42,569 nt of DNA from a virus (taxonomy: Duplodnaviria > Heunggongvirae > Uroviricota > Caudoviricetes), in the IMG/VR virus record IMGVR_UViG_2870469529_000003, positions 1-42,569 of that record; one strand, 5' to 3'. Positions 32,807 through 39,280 of the stretch are shown here, one piece after another; the stretch's first letter is position 1, and every line of letters starts with the position of its first letter. The notes under the pieces were generated by a model, which saw nothing but the letters and a program-made list of their open reading frames with translations, searched no databases and was not told where the DNA came from. The translations under genes were made by a program, and so were the position numbers.

Positions 32807-32867
32807 CAAAAAATACATCTTGTGCATGGATGGTTTTAGTACAGAGCGTAATAATAAGGGTATGAAA

Positions 32868-33521
32868 ATGAAATGGTATGAACTGGCTAGATCCAGAATG
32901 AAAGAGCTCGGCATAACTCAAGAGAAGTTAGCTGAAGAGCTTGGTATGACGCAGGGTGGAATTGGTCACTGGTTGCGCGGATCTCGTCATCCATCTCTTG
33001 ACGAGATTGGTGTGGTGTTTAAATACCTTGGTATTGATAACGTCTCATTCAACCACGACGGTACATTTTCACCTGTTGGCGAATACTCATCTGCCCCCGT
33101 TAAAAAACAATATGAGTACCCTGTTTTTTCTCATGTTCAGGCCGGGATGTTCTCGCCTGAGCTTAGAACCTTTACCAAAGGTGATGCGGAGAGATGGGTC
33201 AGCACAACCAAAAAAGCCAGTGATTGTGCGTTCTGGCTTGAAGTTGAAGGTAATTCCATGACCGCGCCAACAGGATCCAAGCCAAGCTTTCCTGACGGGA
33301 TGTTAATTCTCGTTGACCCTGAGCAGGCTGTTGAGCCAGGTGATTTCTGCATAGCCAGACTTGGTGGTGACGAGTTTACCTTCAAGAAACTGATCAGGGA
33401 TAGCGGTCAGGTGTTCCTACAGCCACTAAACCCGCAATATCCAATGATTCCATGCAATGATAGCTGTTCCGTAGTAGGGAAAGTTATCGCCAGCCAGTGG
33501 CCTGAAGAGACATTTAGTTAA
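32868..33521 (+). CDS. cI: CI-type prophage repressor: lambda-like C-terminal domain, distinct N-terminal HTH (start uncertain; alternatives 32826 and 32862)
   Basis: C-terminal ~110 aa ([17 protein letters not shown]...[10 protein letters not shown]...[13 protein letters not shown]) appears near-identical to lambda CI; N-terminal HTH resembles the cro HTH in this window. Confidence 0.8.
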
Positions 33522-33553
33522 CAGCCTCACAACTCTAAAACACACAACAATAA

Positions 33554-33585
33554 CCCGACCTTAGCGTCGGGTTTTCTTTTTCCAA
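33554..33585 (+). terminator. Rho-independent terminator downstream of cI
   Basis: CCCGACCTTAGCGTCGGG stem followed by TTTTCTTTTT. Confidence 0.7.
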
Positions 33586-33646
33586 AACATAAACCCATTA
33601 AATACAAAGCGTTATAAAAAACCAATCATATTTAGAACATTTTGTA

Positions 33647-33675
33647 TTGACTCGATAAAGTACAAATCGTACTAT
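33647..33675 (+). promoter_or_regulatory. pL-like promoter (-35 TTGACT, 17-nt spacer, -10 TACTAT) with overlapping operator palindrome AGTACAAATCGTACT
   Basis: Perfect 5-5-5 inverted repeat at ~33659-33673 overlapping the spacer and -10. Confidence 0.6.
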
Positions 33676-33713
33676 TTAGCCATCAGCAGGACGCACTAAC
33701 CACCATGAAGGTG

Positions 33714-33745
33714 ATGCTCTTAAAAATTAAGCCCTGAAGAAGGGC
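33714..33745 (+). promoter_or_regulatory. nutL (boxA-like TGCTCTTAA plus boxB GCCCTGAAGAAGGGC)
   Basis: boxB is identical to lambda nutL boxB; sits between pL and N. Confidence 0.75.
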
Positions 33746-33943
33746 GGCTTTCAAAGCAGAAGGCTTTGGGATTGGATGAATGAGCAGGCTGATGCTCGAC
33801 CAATGTATAAACAGCGCTCATGGCAAGCAGTAACCAATCTGCGCCTCAAGACAGCGTCACTGGTAGTGCGGGCGCTCTAACCAGTAAGCCGGGGTTCAGC
33901 GCCGGCCATCCAATCACCAAAGCTAACTGACAGGAGAATCCAG

Positions 33944-34276
33944 ATGGATGCACAAACACGCCGCCGCGAACGTCGCGCAGAGAAACAGGCTCAATGGAAA
34001 GCAGCAAATCCCCTGTTGGTTGGGGTAAGCGCAAAACCAGTTAACCGCCCTATTCTCTCGCTGAATCGCAAACCGAAATCACGAGTAGAAAGCGCACTGA
34101 ATCCGATAGACCTTACGGTGCTGGCTGAATACCACGAACAGATTGAAAGCAACCTGCAACGTATTGAGCGCAAGAATCAGCGCACATGGTACAGCAAGCC
34201 ACGCAGTGAAATGGGTGTGACCTGTTCAGGCCGCCAGAAGCAACGCGGAAAATCAATTCCAGCCTATTACGATTGA
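33944..34276 (+). CDS. N: Antiterminator N, lambda-type, 110 aa
   Basis: MDAQTRRRERRAEKQAQWKAANPLLVGVSAKPVNRPILSLNRKPKSRVESALNPIDLTVLAEYH... appears near-identical to lambda N including the Arg-rich motif. Confidence 0.9.
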   Translation: MDAQTRRRERRAEKQAQWKAANPLLVGVSAKPVNRPILSLNRKPKSRVESALNPIDLTVLAEYHEQIESNLQRIERKNQRTWYSKPRSEMGVTCSGRQKQRGKSIPAYYD

Positions 34277-34545
34277 GGTGGTCATGCTCAAGAAAATCAA
34301 ACGCCGACTTTACAAAGAAGGTAGATATTCATGCCAATTGCCAAAATGCGACACAACAAAATGGAGTGTCGATGATTGGTGTAACTGGATAGATAGATAC
34401 GGAACTTGGTGGGATAAATAACAGGTAACTTAAGCGTATTTACTTTCGCGGCAAACCACATATTTGAGGTGAGATATGGAAGAAGAATTTGAAGAGTTCG
34501 AAGAGCATCCTCAGGATGTGATGGAACAATACCAGGACTATCCGT

Positions 34546-34746
34546 ATGACTACGACTATTGATACAAATCAATGGTGTGGACAATTCAAGCGATGCAATG
34601 GATGCAAGCTGCAATCGGAATGCATGGTTAAGCCTGAAGAAATGTTTCCTGTAATGGAAGATGGGAAATATGTCGATAAATGGGCAATACGAACGACGGC
34701 AATGATTGCCAGAGAACTTGGTAAACAGAATAACAAGGCTGCCTGA
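34546..34746 (+). CDS. ral: Ral-type restriction-alleviation protein, 66 aa
   Basis: MTTTIDTNQWCGQFKRCNGCKLQSECMVKPEEMFPVMEDGKYVDKWAIRTTAMIARELGKQNNKAA matches my recollection of lambda Ral. Confidence 0.75.
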   Translation: MTTTIDTNQWCGQFKRCNGCKLQSECMVKPEEMFPVMEDGKYVDKWAIRTTAMIARELGKQNNKAA

Positions 34747-34779
34747 TGGTGGCCTTTATTTTTGGCGTAAACAACAGAG

Positions 34780-35079
34780 GTGAATATGAATTATACACCC
34801 GGCCCATGGAAATGGTGGACAAGTAACAGCTTTCTGCGATTAAGCAGTCAAGCAACAGGTAAAGATGGTGGTGTCATCGACTCTTATGTCATGAAGGATG
34901 GTCACTCATCACTAATCGTTAGCAAAGAAGATATGAATCTGATAGCGGCAGCACCAGACCTTTTAAATGCCCTGCAAGCGATGCTAAACAAGGCATACAA
35001 GCAAAACTGGAATGACCATTATCCTGATGAAGTATCGAAAGCACAGTCAGCAATCAGCAAAGCTCTTGGGGAAGAATGA
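34780..35079 (+). CDS. Hypothetical early-left protein, 99 aa
   Basis: ORF in pL operon context; no recognisable motif. Confidence 0.5.
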   Translation: MNMNYTPGPWKWWTSNSFLRLSSQATGKDGGVIDSYVMKDGHSSLIVSKEDMNLIAAAPDLLNALQAMLNKAYKQNWNDHYPDEVSKAQSAISKALGEE

Positions 35080-35237
35080 TGAATAAGAAATACATCGTTG
35101 AAGTTATAGAGCGAGAAACGAAAGAAGTAATTAAACATTTCGAATTTGATAATTATAGAAAAGCTGACCGCGTAGAAGAGGGATTGTTGCGACAAAGTAA
35201 TCTCGAAAAATTTGATGTTGTCATGCGATGCGAATAA
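35076..35237 (+). CDS. Hypothetical small protein, 53 aa
   Basis: Not in the ORF track; start overlaps the upstream stop (ATGA); charged, helix-like. Confidence 0.3.
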   Translation: MMNKKYIVEVIERETKEVIKHFEFDNYRKADRVEEGLLRQSNLEKFDVVMRCE

Positions 35238-35420
35238 GCACCTATAGCAGATTTGCGAGTCTGCTATGTGGGCAATGTCGCTCGTAACTAAACAGGAGCC
35301 GACTTGTTCTGATTATTGGAAATCTTCTTTGCCCTCCAGTGTGAGGGCCTTTTTATATGCATACCAATAATGCTTCACGAGAGGCATTTTAGTTATGCAA
35401 TCAAATATAAGGAGTTACCC

Positions 35421-35555
35421 ATGATGCACTTTCAGCTCGCGGGTAGCGGCGTCATGTCCGCTTTCTACCCGCACGAATCTGAATTATCACGCCGAGTTAA
35501 ACAATTAATCAGAGCAGCAAAGAAACAACTGGAGGCGTTATGCGCAATGAAATAG
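35421..35555 (+). CDS. CIII-like protein (putative FtsH inhibitor), 44 aa
   Basis: AGGAG RBS; MMHFQLAGSGVMSAFYPHESELSRRVKQLIRAAKKQL resembles the lambda CIII core. Confidence 0.5.
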   Translation: MMHFQLAGSGVMSAFYPHESELSRRVKQLIRAAKKQLEALCAMK

Positions 35556-35692
35556 CCATCAATCACCAGATGCTTCGTGCTGCACAGAACAAAGCAGTAA
35601 TAGCCAGGTTTATTGGTGATTCAAAAATGTGGCTTGAAGCAAATAAAGCGATGAAATCAGCTATCAACCTTCCGTGGTATCGCAGGAAATGA
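35540..35692 (+). CDS. Kil-like protein (putative FtsZ inhibitor), 50 aa
   Basis: GGAGG RBS; ...KAVIARFIGDSKMWLEANKAMKSAI resembles lambda Kil; follows the cIII-like gene as in lambda. Confidence 0.45.
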   Translation: MRNEIAINHQMLRAAQNKAVIARFIGDSKMWLEANKAMKSAINLPWYRRK

Positions 35693-35946
35693 GTTTTACA
35701 GATAACTGGTCAGACGGAGAATTCATTCGTCAGATGAAAGAATTAATCGGTAACGAAGGAGATATTCATGTCACTTGCAACCACAGTGAAGGAGAGCAAG
35801 TTACAGAGACGCATGTACACGCAGAAAGCTCTCTGGTATCGCCATAATGGTGACCGCGAAGGAATGCGGGTATGCCTTAATTTGTCCCGAGTCGAAGTAT
35901 TAAATCAGCGTTATTTCCTTGGGCCGTGTCCATTCTGAGGTGAATT

Positions 35947-36654
35947 ATGGATTTGAATAAATTCGATGAGCCATTCAGCCCTGAAGATATCGAATGGCGA
36001 ATACAGCAAAGCGGTAAAACACGCGATGGAAAAGTGTGGGCTATGGTGCTGGCTTATGTCACGAACCGGGCAATCATGAAACGCCTGGACGATGTTTGCG
36101 GCAAAGCAGGATGGCGCAATGAATACCGCGATATTCCCAACAACGGCGGAGTTGAATGCGGCATATCAATCAAGATTGATTCCGAATGGGTAACCAAATG
36201 GGATGCTGCTGAAAACACGCAGGTAGAAGCCGTCAAAGGTGGTCGTTCAGGTGCAATGAAGCGTGCTGCCGTTCAGTGGGGAATCGGTCGGTATCTGTAT
36301 AACCTTGAGGAAGGTTTCGCACAAACATCTCTCGATAAAAAGCATGGGTGGCACAGGGCAAAACTGAAGGATGGAACAGGATTTTACTGGCTCCCTCCAT
36401 CGCTGCCGGGATGGGCAATCCCAGCATCAGATAACAAACCATCACCAGAAAATACCAACCAGAAATCTCCATCGGTTGACTGCGAACAAATCCTGAAAGA
36501 CTTCAGCGATTATGCATCAACAGAAACTGACAAGAAAAAACTCATCGAGCGTTATCAGCGTGACTGGCAATTAATGGCTGGCAACGAGGAGGCGCAGGCT
36601 AAATGCGTTCAGGTAATGAACATCAGAGTTAACGAACTAAAACAGGCGGCATAA
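35947..36654 (+). CDS. Single-strand annealing protein: Rad52-like N-terminal domain with P22 Erf-like C-terminal tail, 235 aa
   Basis: N-terminal ...KGGRSGAMKRAAVQWGIGRYLYN (Rad52-type); C-terminal ...YASTETDKKKLIERYQRDWQLMAGNEEAQAKCVQVMNIRVNELKQAA matches my recollection of the P22 Erf C-terminus. Confidence 0.7.
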   Translation: MDLNKFDEPFSPEDIEWRIQQSGKTRDGKVWAMVLAYVTNRAIMKRLDDVCGKAGWRNEYRDIPNNGGVECGISIKIDSEWVTKWDAAENTQVEAVKGGRSGAMKRAAVQWGIGRYLYNLEEGFAQTSLDKKHGWHRAKLKDGTGFYWLPPSLPGWAIPASDNKPSPENTNQKSPSVDCEQILKDFSDYASTETDKKKLIERYQRDWQLMAGNEEAQAKCVQVMNIRVNELKQAA

Positions 36655-37122
36655 ATGTCTCACTTGGACGGAATTATTAAAAGATTCGAGTCCAGCTACA
36701 AAGTTAATGAAACAACAGGTTGCTGGGAGTCTACCTATTCAAAAAACAAAGGAGGATACACAAAATTTGTAGCCTTTGGCGTAACAATGCTTTCTCATCG
36801 GGTTGCTTTTGAGCTTTATCACTCCCCCATTCCATCTGGGAAGATGGTTTGCCACAAATGCGATAACCCATGCTGCGTTAATCCTGAACATCTCTTTTTA
36901 GGTAGCGCGCAAGAAAACATGGACGACAAGATAGCAAAAGGAAGGCATCGTGGAGCCAAGAAAGGTCATGCTCATCATGGTGCAAAATTAACAGAGTGGC
37001 AGGTTATAGAAATTAGGAAAAGACTCTCTGAAAAAGAGAGTCAGTACAAGATAGCAAAAGACATGGGTGTATCTCAATCAATTATAAGCAACATAAAAAC
37101 TGGCAAGAGGTGGAGCAAATGA
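36655..37122 (+). CDS. HNH endonuclease, 155 aa
   Basis: HNH core ([25 protein letters not shown]) plus a C-terminal basic helix-turn-helix-like segment. Confidence 0.8.
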
Positions 37123-37638: not shown

Positions 37639-37932
37639 ATGCCAGCGCCTCTGTATGGTGCGGATGACGCGCGCCGCTGTTCCGGCAATTCCGTATCGGA
37701 GGTGCTGGATAAATTCAGAAAAAACTACGATCGGATAATGTCGCTACCGCAGGAAACGAAAGAGGAAAAGGAATTTCGCCACTGTATATGGCTTGCAGAG
37801 AAAGAAGAACGAGAGCGAATTTACCAGACATCAATCCGACCATTCCGCAAAGCCACATATACCCACTTCCCTGAAATTGACCCGCGCCTGCGTAATTACC
37901 GCTCACGCTATGGCGCTATCAGTAATGACTGA
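37639..37932 (+). CDS. Hypothetical protein, 97 aa
   Basis: ORF in early-left operon context. Confidence 0.45.
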   Translation: MPAPLYGADDARRCSGNSVSEVLDKFRKNYDRIMSLPQETKEEKEFRHCIWLAEKEERERIYQTSIRPFRKATYTHFPEIDPRLRNYRSRYGAISND

Positions 37933-37942
37933 GGAATTAACA

Positions 37943-38233
37943 ATGAAAACAATGAAGCTAAACATCGACCTCGGAAAATACGTTATTACCGGAACCAAAC
38001 ACGATCTGATTCTTAGCGAAAGAGGAATTATCAAAGAAGGTGAGAATGCAGGGAAAGAAACACTAAGCCGTATCGGTTATTACAGCAAGTTTGAGCATCT
38101 GGTCAAAGAGTTATGCAACCGTGAAATCCTGTTATCTCAGGCGCAGACGCTACAGGATATTCAGCAGCATATCGAGACTTTAGGTGTATCACTTAGCATG
38201 GCTGTTGACCAGTTCGTGGAGAGTAAGTCATGA
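37943..38233 (+). CDS. Hypothetical protein, 96 aa
   Basis: GAGGA RBS before ATG at 37943. Confidence 0.5.
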
Positions 38234-38390
38234 GAGGACTTGCATACAATCCCGGCATTCTTCCGGCAGAAATGATTATTCGCCAACGCGTAAAGCCAAT
38301 GCCATCGAGAGATGAATTGCTTAAGAGAAAGAGTTTCGGTTCTGTTAATGACAACAAATATCTGAATGCGATGTGGCGGAGTGGGAAGAA

Positions 38391-38840
38391 ATGAAACAAA
38401 TGTCACTAATTGAGATGGATGGATTTCTGAAAGGTAAATGCATCCCACGAGATTTAAAGGTTAACGAAACAAACGCTGAATACCTTGTCCGTAAGTTCGG
38501 TGAACTTGAATCAAAACTGGAAACGGCGTTGCGGGAGTGTCGTTCTGCTGGAATCACGATTGATAACCTTGAGGCTAAATGCGCGAAGATGGCTGCTGAA
38601 AATACCTCACTTAAGCAATCTGAGAAGGAATTTAATGACTTTTGTCGTGAGGAGTTTAGCGAATGGGAAGATGATGTTACTGAAACCCCAGCCACCGACG
38701 CATTCCTGGCTGAAGTACGGGCGCAGGGAGTGGAGATGGCTATGGAGCATATGCAGTCGAGCGGTTCGTTAACATTTGGAGATTGCTACATATCACTTAA
38801 CGAGTTCGCCGCCCAGCTTCGTAAAGGAGGCAACCAGTGA
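38391..38840 (+). CDS. Hypothetical protein, 149 aa
   Basis: ORF in operon context; stop overlaps the next start (GTGA). Confidence 0.5.
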
Positions 38841-39280
38841 GCGAAATTAATTATCAGGCACTGCGTGAAGCGGCAGAAAAAGCAACGTGTGGTGTGTGGT
38901 CGCTCGAATATGGAGAGGAGAGATTTGATGCTGGTGATGCGCTAATTCATCGTGAAGTTGTTGGATATCTTCCCATTTGCAGAATTGAAGGAGCGCATCC
39001 TGAAAGCGGTTTCGATGAAGGTTTCCAAATGGAACAGCAGGCCAATGCTGAATTCATCGCCGCAGCCAATCCGGCTACCGTGCTAACACTGCTGAACGAG
39101 CTGGAAACAGCAAAAAAGCGCATAGCAGAACTGGAGGAGCGGGAAATACTGCTCCCGGAACGTAGCAGCATGCTTCATCGAACAGATTTTCACGATGATT
39201 ACCAAACGGTAATGGCATACAAAGTTTCTGAAGTCATCGATGCAATCCGCGCTACTGGCATTCGCATCAAAGGAGAGTGA
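38837..39280 (+). CDS. Ead/Ea22-like early protein, 147 aa
   Basis: ...ANAEFIAAANPATVLTLLNELE...AELEERE... is the typical Ead/Ea22 family motif. Confidence 0.65.
   Translation: MSEINYQALREAAEKATCGVWSLEYGEERFDAGDALIHREVVGYLPICRIEGAHPESGFDEGFQMEQQANAEFIAAANPATVLTLLNELETAKKRIAELEEREILLPERSSMLHRTDFHDDYQTVMAYKVSEVIDAIRATGIRIKGE

Follow-up and report, generated by a model that had tools for sequence, protein, structure and literature searches.

What is encoded by the string of short genes that separates the antiterminator N from the recombination genes of this lambdoid phage, and does it hold new inhibitors of host defence? The window under study (the whole stretch of viral DNA that was analysed, 42,569 nucleotides) had been given a sequence-only reading, which placed ral, cIII and kil genes in this interval among five small open reading frames (ORFs) and proposed these as candidates for uncharacterised inhibitors, for example of RecBCD or of restriction systems. 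Pfam confirmed the first part of this account (PF11058, PF08134 and PF06301 for Ral, cIII and Kil, respectively). Likewise, the five small ORFs are open, and each matches a PHROG family, which is more than would be expected by chance. We consider it likely that 34284-35947 is the delayed-early, N-antiterminated pL part of a mosaic P22-like (Lederbergvirus-type) lambdoid prophage composed of exchangeable known cassettes. All ten of its genes belong to phage families on record, so the region is an ordinary one.

Organization of the early-left operon

The order of elements is cI, pL, nutL and N, followed by ORFs that all lie on the + strand (Table 1). According to the ORF listing, ten short + strand genes fill 34284-35947, the interval that begins just after N and ends where the recombination module starts. 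They are connected by overlaps of 4-17 nt or by short gaps, a Shine-Dalgarno sequence stands before each of them, and their translation would be coupled.

Table 1. Coordinates of genes and signals in and around the early-left operon, with the evidence for each
Feature	Position	Strand	Evidence
cI	32820-33521		pL-like promoter lies between cI and N
pL-like promoter	33647..33675	+	TTGACT, 17-nt spacer, TACTAT; consensus scan, pattern match only
Putative nutL boxB hairpin, GCCCTGAAGAAGGGC	33731..33745	+	Sequence reading and hairpin scan
Antiterminator N, 110 aa	33944..34276	+	Pfam N36 PF11438, E 1.6e-26
45-aa DUF5484 protein (Sf6 gp36 / T4 gp55.4 family)	34284..34421	+	PF17583 E 9.6e-13; phrog_1871 E 1.6e-22
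orf28, 28-aa acidic peptide	34476..34562	+	phrog_16060 E 7e-19; identity to lambda orf28
Ral, restriction alleviation, 66 aa	34546..34746	+	PF11058 E 1.7e-48
Terminator-like hairpin and T-run over the ral stop codon	34735..34756	+	Pattern scan only
97-aa P22 orf78-like protein	34786..35079	+	phrog_1273 E 5e-25; homologues carry PF27050
53-aa protein	35076..35237	+	phrog_6949 E 3e-40
Conserved boundary sequence and tL2a-type terminator	35272..35354	+	Sf6/lambda identity, terminator scan
cIII, 44 aa, FtsH inhibitor family	35421..35555	+	PF08134 E 2e-30, 104.7 bits
Kil, 50 aa, cell-division inhibitor family	35540..35692	+	PF06301 E 1.7e-20, 72.6 bits; phrog_2055 E 1e-35
52-aa ORF (HK97 gp42.1 / Sf6 gp30)	35689..35847	+	phrog_2123 E 8e-41
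56-aa HK97 gp42 / Sf6 gp29-like protein	35768..35938	+	phrog_1723 E 9e-36
Rad52/22-family single-strand annealing protein, start of Rec module	35947..36654	+	PF04098 E 6e-26; phrog_1097 E 5.6e-130
Abc2 anti-RecBCD protein, 97 aa	37639..37932	+	PF11043 E 5.6e-63, positions 1-97 of 97

Several signals accompany these genes. Upstream of N, a boxA-like GCTCTTAA was read in the sequence ahead of the putative boxB, GCCCTGAAGAAGGGC, which we take to be the same sequence as the boxB of lambda nutL. Between the 53-aa gene and cIII, the terminator scan returned a pattern match for the tL2a-type terminator, with a hairpin at 35331-35348 that is followed by a T-run. Upon loss of the repressor, RNA polymerase would initiate at pL, and loading of N at nutL would allow it to read through the terminator-like hairpins, both the one where ral ends and that of the tL2a region. 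An Rfam scan of 33400-36100 gave only a chance match to a miRNA (E 0.57). Antisense ORFs, including one of 105 aa at 34297-34614 in the position that sieB occupies in lambda and P22, had no PHROG or PADLOC match and were treated as spurious.

Downstream of the terminator, cIII and kil follow one another with a 16-nt overlap; both products score above the Pfam gathering threshold, and kil has a pN/pS of 0.04 among the IMG/VR loci. In lambda, cIII blocks FtsH and Kil blocks assembly of the FtsZ ring, and the proteins encoded here would be expected to do the same.

Ral and the genes around it

Ral aligns with PF11058 over positions 1-66 of 66 (162.5 bits against a cut-off of 25) and is 98.5% identical to its lambda counterpart. 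The lambda protein alleviates type IA restriction, enhancing de novo methylation by HsdM (PMC12707154). From this near identity, we infer a role in restriction alleviation for the Ral encoded here, which would speed de novo methylation by type IA HsdM.

Immediately upstream, and overlapping ral by 17 nt, lies orf28. Its product has a net charge of -12 and is 100% identical to lambda orf28 (NP_040623), a gene that is non-essential in lambda (PMC10695390). The IMG/VR loci show strong purifying selection on this peptide (pN/pS 0.07; codon position 3 accounts for 13 of the 20 variable sites), and 46 of the 48 Ral-bearing loci have orf28 in overlap with ral. The two genes would thus form a conserved bicistron, in which orf28 most likely acts together with Ral or delivers ribosomes to the weak start of ral. 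For lambda itself this is a modest lead, as the bicistron is under strong selection, tightly linked and unstudied.

The first gene after N encodes a protein of the DUF5484 family. Its match to PF17583 reaches 48 bits (gathering cut-off 27), its identity is 98% to Sf6 gp36 and 55% to PP01 gp55.4, and alignment with these two proteins shows that the motif PKxDTTKWSVxDW is conserved. The gene has GAGGTGG as its Shine-Dalgarno sequence and a pooled pN/pS of 0.27 in the IMG/VR loci. It had been described as Cys-rich; three of its 45 residues are Cys, and the T4 gp55.4 homologue that was aligned (the PP01 copy) conserves none of them, for which reason a Cys-rich or zinc-binding reading was discarded. 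A tblastn search with the 45-aa protein retrieved 1039 phage records, about 1028 of them at less than 60% identity; among the matches listed, almost all of those below 60% come from T4-like and related large virulent phages. The occurrence of one family in roughly 1000 such phages and in a few temperate lambdoids could point to a host-directed function that is independent of lifestyle. No mention of DUF5484 was found in the literature searched, and the sharing of this family by T-even-type and lambdoid phages provides a second modest lead.

Downstream of ral, the sequence-only reading had listed a 99-aa ORF with a start at 34780. The frame is indeed open. However, the GTG at 34780 lies inside the Shine-Dalgarno sequence, and the probable start is ATG 34786, in agreement with the PGAP protein WP_085668479 and with the database homologues. 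The resulting 97-aa protein has 408 protein homologues of 54-99% identity. In the family alignment (A3), the N-domain is invariant, the middle hypervariable and the KALGEE end conserved. It resembles the product of P22 orf78, which also stands directly after ral and belongs to phrog_1273, and the two share an AAAP(E/D)LLEAL motif and a KALGKE/KALGEE end. Their identity is only 34% over 64 aa, and the highly conserved N-terminal beta domain of the 97-aa protein (TPGPWxWWTSNSF...) differs from that of P22 orf78. The AlphaFold2 (AF2) model has a pLDDT of 76.8, and fold searches with it in PDB and BFVD gave nothing at E<=0.001; a sequence-profile search of the PDB with the family returned nothing. 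Kinship with the Ead/Ea22-like protein encoded at 38837-39280, which shares an 'IAAA' motif, was considered and rejected (hhalign probability 0.1%).

The 97-aa gene is joined to the 53-aa gene, whose start codon overlaps the preceding stop codon (ATGA). The 53-aa family is narrow, with 12 clusters, and its pooled pN/pS in the IMG/VR loci is 0.06. From Met2 onward, the protein is identical to ATN92755.1 (APC_JM3.2), which is orf149 of the screen of Silas et al. The junction between these two genes is informative, for residues 67-99 of the 97-aa family travel with the downstream 53-aa gene, and a search with the 97-aa protein retrieved 63 loci among which the same cassettes are shuffled in mosaic fashion. 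This mosaic joint coincides with the hypervariable part of the family, which points to recombination instead of an arms race. Together, the DUF5484, orf78-like and 53-aa proteins would be products of non-essential accessory genes.

An overlapping gene pair ahead of the annealase

Between kil and the annealase gene, the sequence-only reading had listed the 52-aa ORF, which starts within an ATGA overlap with the kil stop codon (35689-35692). A 56-aa gene that overlaps it by 80 nt was absent from that list. Variation among the IMG/VR loci separates the two frames. The 56-aa gene has a pN/pS of 0.10, with an excess of synonymous changes in both of its halves (p=3e-5 and 1.5e-7), and it is preceded by a strong AAGGAG Shine-Dalgarno sequence. 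The 52-aa ORF has an overall pN/pS of 1.88; its 3' 80 nt hold 1 synonymous and 15 non-synonymous variants, while the same 80 nt read in the 56-aa frame hold 11 and 5 (p=3e-5). Of the two, it is the 56-aa gene that has good support.

In the light of these figures, the 52-aa ORF might be no gene but a frame kept open by chance, or by constraint on the 3' end of kil and on the ribosome binding site and 5' coding sequence of the 56-aa gene. Such a reading accounts well for the variants of the 3' half, where the overlapping frame is the constrained one, and for the overall ratio; moreover, the Shine-Dalgarno sequence is weak, and PGAP does not call the ORF in an E. coli genome that contains its DNA (H81). 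Even so, we regard it as unlikely in view of the N-terminal part. The first ~22 residues recur with other C-termini, at the head of distinct ORFs of 35 and 39 aa that have unrelated downstream genes. Despite a nucleotide identity of 63%, these ORFs retain the ATG, the overlap (ATGA) and the pattern of hydrophobic residues; the 39-aa variant keeps its ORF and the ATGA overlap at a pS of 0.70 and a pN of 0.30. A homologue of 61% identity is better conserved in its N-part (73%) than in its C-part (46%), 111 of 114 loci have an intact start codon, and there is profile similarity to P22 Arf. Site counts in the N-terminal half are marginal by themselves (6 synonymous against 13 non-synonymous, p=0.067). 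The copy in the window carries a private E10G change, SDGEF where all 114 loci have SDEEF.

The similarity to Arf covers only 19 N-terminal columns (hhalign probability 72%, E 3.4e-5) and is weaker by other routes (E 0.037 against phrog_2445, the Arf family; BLASTP E 1.5). A bridging Arf variant stands after the same Kil type in one locus (L134). P22 Arf (47 aa, phrog_2445) also starts at the kil stop codon upstream of the annealase, and it shares with the 52-aa ORF an N-terminal (W/F)SDEEFI helix and an acidic tail. In contrast, the conserved C-terminus of Arf (QINLAAER...W.EF.G.Y) is absent here, and the tail of the 52-aa ORF, unlike that of Arf, lies within the 5' region of another gene. 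The functional part of this ORF is probably the Arf-like N-terminal ~22 aa, with a 3' half that is unconstrained in frame, and the product would be a divergent Arf-type peptide with a conserved N-terminal amphipathic helix and a dispensable tail. Purifying selection at the level of the ORF, as opposed to the DNA, is evident from low pN/pS for the 45-, 28-, 53- and 56-aa ORFs, and for the 52-aa ORF conservation extends to these ~22 residues only.

Another possibility is that the two frames produce one 82-aa fusion by a programmed +1 ribosomal frameshift within the overlap. At least seven different database proteins of 81-82 aa join both frames (P0121, P0125, P0141, P0143, P0144, P0147 and P0151), one of them on 36 contigs. 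The junction point differs among them, however, as independent 1-nt deletions or assembly errors would predict and a defined slip site would not, and there is an ascertainment bias in that gene callers report only those frameshifts which create long ORFs. Since the 56-aa gene comes with an ATG and a strong Shine-Dalgarno sequence of its own, and the 35- and 39-aa forms of the upstream peptide have no fusion partner, we consider a programmed fusion highly improbable.

What, then, could the pair do? The AF2 model of the 56-aa protein is a helical hairpin of high confidence (pLDDT 91.9) that has no fold match in the PDB at E<=0.001. Descent from Kil, suggested by helical hairpins with a G-D turn in both, was not borne out (hhalign probability 4.6% local, 0.2% global), nor was the idea that the 56-aa protein is the missing C-terminal half of Arf (0.25%). 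Its position offers more. The 56-aa gene lies immediately upstream of the annealase gene, and in the slot analysis it always precedes an annealase of the Erf or Rad52 type and never RecT. In 23 loci it is the 56-aa gene that stands upstream of an Erf/Rad52-type annealase, and in 12 loci it is P22 Arf, whereas upstream of RecT a different 102-aa gene is found (11/11 loci). The 56-aa helical hairpin would accordingly occupy the slot of P22 Arf; Arf stimulates Erf-mediated recombination, and both Arf and Abc1 aid recombination in P22 (PMC12315714). Synteny, together with weak homology, favours a reading of the 52- and 56-aa products as putative helpers of the recombination module and not as anti-defence proteins; for the 56-aa protein, such a role is suggested by its position only. 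The PHROG label 'recombinase' on phrog_2123 and phrog_1723 is an unverified annotation, and nothing specific on HK97 gp42 was found in the literature searched.

Anti-defence functions

The case for a new RecBCD inhibitor had been built in part on the apparent lack of a Gam or Abc homologue. This was mistaken, as abc2 is present ~1.8 kb downstream, outside the coordinates that were considered. Its product is 92.8% identical to P22 Abc2 over the full length (P22 Abc2 is the anti-RecBCD protein of PDB 8B1T, an N-terminal fragment), and the annealase gene is separated from abc2 by genes for an HNH endonuclease and an SSB. Next to abc2, no homologue of abc1 was seen. Among the small ORFs of 34284-35938, none resembles Gam, Abc1 or Abc2 (best BLASTP E >=0.5, no Pfam match), and none matches a PADLOC defence-protein model or NCBIfam. 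RecBCD would thus be handled by the canonical Abc2.

The view of the region as a site of host takeover and anti-defence fared better. The stretch around ral is a recognised accessory and counter-defence hot spot: in the top 200 accessory regions, those labelled 'Ral' take places #2, #11 and #14 (Silas et al., bioRxiv 10.1101/2023.04.06.535777, Suppl. File 2). In the same work, orf184, from a ral-containing region, triggers gop-beta-cII. This gene is not encoded in 34284-35847 and was found in only one of the related loci (L128). The 200-gene screen included orf149 (the 53-aa ORF) and orf168 (a homologue of the 56-aa protein), neither of which is listed with a phenotype (bioRxiv 10.1101/2023.04.06.535777); the other four small ORFs were not found in that library.

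Could at least one of the six small ORFs (45, 28, 97, 53, 52 or 56 aa) nevertheless be an uncharacterised inhibitor of restriction, RecBCD or an abortive-infection system? The setting speaks for it, with ral in a top-ranked accessory region and phenotypes for other genes of ral regions, such as orf184. So do the distribution of DUF5484 over virulent and temperate phages and the strong conservation of the acidic orf28 beside an anti-restriction gene. The hypervariable segment of the 97-aa family would fit as well, but it coincides with a mosaic joint. The confident hairpin of the 56-aa protein is another point in its favour, as designed minibinders are among its best fold neighbours, though none of these is significant; against this stands the covariation of the 52- and 56-aa genes with annealase type. 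With anti-RecBCD activity already supplied by Abc2 and the screened orf149 and orf168 outside the list of genes with phenotypes, we hold an inhibitor among the six to be rather doubtful. What survives of the original proposal is the accessory hot spot; its RecBCD branch does not, and the 52- and 56-aa ORFs beside kil go by synteny with the recombination module.

A role of the Ral-linked genes as host-directed factors is possible but unproven. The strongest candidates may be orf28, given its charge and its constant pairing with the ral gene, and the DUF5484 protein, given its occurrence in about 1000 T4-like and related large virulent phages. It is a tentative suggestion that one or more of the ral-adjoining peptides is a new host-directed inhibitor (for example, a partner or mimic that acts on type I restriction enzymes or on some other conserved target in the host) and that, separately, the 52-/56-aa pair is an undescribed accessory set for Erf/Rad52 annealases. 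As a discovery the region carries little weight, for its ORFs are known, the hot spot is recognised and two ORFs or their homologues have already been screened. The useful outcome lies in the corrections: Abc2 is present, the 97-aa gene probably starts at 34786, a 56-aa gene is added, and the 52-aa ORF is best taken as a short Arf-like peptide.

Comparison with known phages

Only in the 60-aa track that served the sequence-only reading were the small ORFs unannotated. Public records already call them (lambda orf28, Sf6 gp36/gp30/gp29, APC_JM3.2 ATN92755, WP_085668479), and annotated copies of these genes occur in Sf6, Sf101, lambda, P22 and E. coli prophages. Judged by their sequences, the small ORFs are almost identical to genes already entered in the lambda, Sf6, HK97 and P22 records and in the PHROG and Pfam catalogues, and they are not novel.

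The closest parallel is the early-left operon of Sf6 (genes 37-28), with a DNA identity of 97.9% over 67% of the query and the same order of N, gp36, ral, ..., tL2A, cIII, kil, gp30, gp29 and annealase. At the places homologous to the pL-like promoter and the boxB hairpin, Sf6 has an annotated pL/OL and a putative nutL, respectively. The boundary sequence is 97.6% identical to an Sf6 stretch that holds most of the annotated bsq4 and nearly all of tL2A, and its tL2a-type sequence is 96.6% identical to lambda 33923-34009. Differences from Sf6 are found after ral, where gp34 and gp33 stand in place of the 97- and 53-aa genes, and in orf28, which is not annotated there. Lambda has the orf28-ral unit (lambdap47/lambdap46) with the same overlap, but its flanks differ: an antisense sieB lies between N and orf28 where the DUF5484 gene follows N here, and ea10 follows ral where the orf78-like and 53-aa genes are found here. 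For the overlapping pair, the model is HK97 gp42.1/gp42, to whose families the 52- and 56-aa ORFs match over their full length and from which they show no substantive difference. The same pair is annotated in the DNA-homologous stretches of Sf6 and Sf101, and the Sf6 record itself notes the similarity of gp30 and gp29 to HK97 gp42.1 and gp42.

Layout of the early left region

The phage or prophage represented here is a mosaic P22-like (Lederbergvirus-type) lambdoid of E. coli, with a structural half ~96% identical to phages APC_JM3.2, IME10 and Dewey and with early-region pieces that are found again in thousands of E. coli genomes. A sequence-only reading had placed a group of small ORFs downstream of pL, in the stretch that separates N from the recombination module, and the plus-strand order of cI, a pL-like promoter, a boxB hairpin, N and then the small-ORF segment shows this placement to be correct. 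The Ral, cIII-like and Kil-like genes recognized there are all confirmed by Pfam. The 183-nt gap 5' of cIII contains a conserved boundary sequence and a tL2a-type terminator, both known from Sf6 and lambda. Across the ral stop codon lies a GC-rich hairpin of 9 bp with TATTTTTGG after it, terminator-like by pattern only, which N-modified polymerase presumably reads through.

Features of the early left region of the window
Feature	Position	Strand	Family or remark
cI	32820-33521	+
pL-like promoter	33647-33675	+
nutL-type boxB hairpin	33731-33745	+
N	33944-34276	+	Pfam N36
45-aa ORF	34284-34421	+	phrog_1871 / Pfam DUF5484
28-aa ORF (orf28)	34476-34562	+	phrog_16060
Ral	34546-34746	+	Pfam, E 1.7e-48
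Terminator-like hairpin	34735-34756
97/99-aa ORF	34780-35079	+	phrog_1273
53-aa ORF	35076-35237	+	phrog_6949
cIII	35421-35555	+	Pfam, E 2e-30
Kil	35540-35692	+	Pfam, E 1.7e-20
52-aa ORF	35689-35847	+	phrog_2123
56-aa ORF	35768-35938	+	phrog_1723; +1 frame relative to 52-aa ORF
HNH endonuclease	36655-37122		PF13392, HTH tail
Abc2	37639-37932	+	PF11043, E 5.6e-63
96-aa protein	37943-38233		DUF5405 / phrog_154; PHROGs label "replication initiation protein"
54-aa protein	38230-38394		phrog_1117; P22 orf56 homologue

Small ORFs of known families

The five additional ORFs are open as first described, and each is also a full-length match to an existing PHROG family; a sixth, of 56 aa, was missing from that list and overlaps the 52-aa ORF by 80 nt. 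The description of these genes as unannotated is valid only for the 60-aa ORF track, since annotated public records already call them: Sf6 gp36, gp30 and gp29 (with the record notes "similar to T4 55.4" and "similar to HK97 gp42.1 / gp42"), Sf101 gp36, lambda orf28, PGAP WP_085668479 and APC_JM3.2 ATN92755. In a comparison of ~150 related loci, drawn from IMG/VR and from reference phages, pooled pN/pS measured against the window came to 0.27, 0.07, 0.06 and 0.10 for the ORFs of 45, 28, 53 and 56 aa, respectively, next to 0.23 for Ral and 0.04 for Kil. A Shine-Dalgarno sequence precedes every ORF, and several starts overlap the upstream stop codon (ATGA).

Lambda orf28 and the 28-aa ORF are identical, and the encoded peptide has 12 acidic and no basic residues. 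The ORF is under strong purifying selection, and its 17-nt overlap with ral is present in 46 of 48 Ral-bearing loci; we propose that orf28-ral is a conserved bicistron. Lambda orf28 is non-essential by CRISPRi (PMC10695390), and we found no functional study of it in the literature.

The DUF5484 protein (45 aa), encoded directly 3' of N in both Sf6 and the window and at 1498-1629 of locus L151, is rare in lambdoids, ~11 phage records reaching at least 80% identity. T4-like and other related large virulent phages supply ~1000 records with homologues of 42-56% identity, annotated as gp55.4 in those of T4 type. Because its three Cys are not conserved in the gp55.4 homologue aligned (PP01 copy), the earlier label "Cys-rich" carries no meaning. 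The gp55.4 gene belongs to the T4 55.1-55.8 cluster, in which the product of gene 55.2 is a published topoisomerase I inhibitor; few temperate lambdoids share DUF5484.

At the DNA level the 97/99-aa ORF has few close relatives, but 408 protein homologues (54-99% identity) have an invariant N-terminal domain in common. GTG 34780, which would give 99 aa, sits within the Shine-Dalgarno sequence AGAGGTGA, and ATG 34786, giving 97 aa, is the start in PGAP and in the database homologues. In this relative of P22 orf78, the N-domain is beta-rich and highly conserved and the helical middle is hypervariable; an AAAP(E/D)LLEAL motif is present, and the KALGEE end is conserved. In other phages its C-terminal third accompanies the downstream 53-aa gene: residues 67-99 (91-100% identical) are joined to a different N-terminal part and always followed by the 53-aa gene (related loci L137-L145). 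The variability therefore reflects a mosaic joint within the gene and not clear-cut diversifying selection. The joint lies near the AAAP(E/D)LLEAL motif, and all homologues (P0001-P0120) carry the precomputed Pfam accession PF27050.1.

An overlapping pair, probably of the recombination module

The 52-aa frame has an overall pN/pS of 1.88. With each variant scored once, the overlap contains 1 synonymous against 15 non-synonymous changes in this frame, and the same changes read in the 56-aa frame are 11 synonymous against 5 non-synonymous (p=3e-5). The remainder of the 56-aa gene gives 22 against 11 (p=1.5e-7), and the 5' stretch that belongs to the 52-aa ORF alone gives 6 against 13 (p=0.067). 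The overlap thus evolves as the 56-aa gene. The first ~22 residues of the 52-aa ORF (MSFTDNWSDEEFIRQMKELI) reappear before unrelated downstream genes, where they open separate proteins of 35 aa (...MLNQHKEQEKDDDSDSE) and a divergent one of 39 aa (MSIADTWSEDAFVRLMQDML...). In the latter, at 63% nucleotide identity, the ATG, the ATGA overlap and the pattern of hydrophobic residues are all preserved (pS 0.70, pN 0.30). A homologue at 61% identity from a 1.84-billion-protein library is 73% identical in its N-part and 46% in its C-part. We conclude that a short peptide is probably encoded here, its conserved part being the N-terminal helix, whose functional role is presumed.

The window has a private E10G at 35716-35718, in the most conserved motif of the ORF (SDGEF); SDEEF or a close variant is found in 114/114 related loci. 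At least seven different 81-82-aa database proteins (P0121, P0125, P0141, P0143, P0144, P0147, P0151) fuse the two frames at differing junctions within 35768-35847, each fitting a 1-nt deletion. Most likely these represent frameshift alleles or errors of assembly, even though fusions are called repeatedly, one of them on 36 contigs.

In P22, arf starts at the kil stop codon, ahead of erf, and the Arf N-terminus FSDEEFIALI matches the 52-aa family consensus WSDEEFIRQM. Profile-profile comparison of the two families gave a probability of 72% (E 3.4e-5, 19 columns), the 52-aa ORF matched the Arf PHROG at E 0.037, and a bridging Arf variant (QWDEKAFTEIMLDMI...) follows a window-type Kil in the related locus L134. 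These likenesses are suggestive of kinship, not proof, and we propose that proteins of the gp42.1 family begin in an Arf-like manner. Immediately 5' of the annealase, in loci not picked through the 56-aa gene, the slot ahead of Erf- or Rad52-type annealases holds the 56-aa gene in 23 loci and P22 Arf in 12. Ahead of RecT the slot is filled by a different gene, of 102 aa, in 11/11 loci and never, among these loci, by the 56-aa gene, which we propose is an Arf-slot gene specific to Erf/Rad52-type annealases. From synteny, we infer that both genes are functional members of the recombination module. The 56-aa protein is confidently predicted as a two-helix hairpin (pLDDT 91.9); a fold search returned no informative neighbour, and comparisons with Kil and with Arf showed no relation.

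RecBCD and counter-defence

The absence of an evident Gam or Abc homologue had been taken to leave room for RecBCD inhibitors among the small ORFs. That premise was mistaken: a full-length Abc2, 93% identical to that of P22, is encoded downstream of the Rad52-type annealase, HNH endonuclease and SSB, with no abc1 homologue seen beside it in the window, and no small ORF shows similarity to Gam, Abc1 or Abc2. The HNH gene, which abuts the annealase stop and overlaps the start of SSB, has the look of a homing-type nuclease, free-standing and inserted into the Rec module; Sf6 is without it at this position. The 96-aa and 54-aa genes downstream of abc2 are further small pL genes.

On a general level, the idea of a counter-defence neighbourhood of accessory genes is sound and has been published before: Silas et al. 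(bioRxiv 10.1101/2023.04.06.535777) place "Ral" accessory regions at #2, #11 and #14 in their top 200. The 200-gene library of that study includes the 53-aa ORF as orf149 (identical from the second Met) and, as orf168, a homologue of the 56-aa gene (82% identity for a closely similar database protein, P0127); the other four small ORFs were not found in it. Neither orf149 nor orf168 is among the genes listed with a phenotype in that study, nor in the Nat Commun paper of 2025. Given the limited host set and mostly virulent phages of the screen, this negative is weak evidence, yet evidence. The original observation is partly confirmed and its interpretation partly supported. That one Ral-proximal peptide, orf28 or DUF5484, is a real host-directed inhibitor seems rather unlikely.

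Comparison with known lambdoid phages

The exact combination across 34200-36000 is absent from all records of three collections, the best single place reaching 82% coverage. The novelty of the segment is this particular gene combination only, as is normal among lambdoid mosaics, and our three proposals (gp42.1, the Arf slot and the bicistron) are modest refinements that add no new kind of system. All elements have near-identical or clearly homologous counterparts: orf28-ral and tL2 in lambda, gp36, gp30 and gp29 in Sf6, orf78, arf and abc2 in P22, and gp42 and gp42.1 in HK97.
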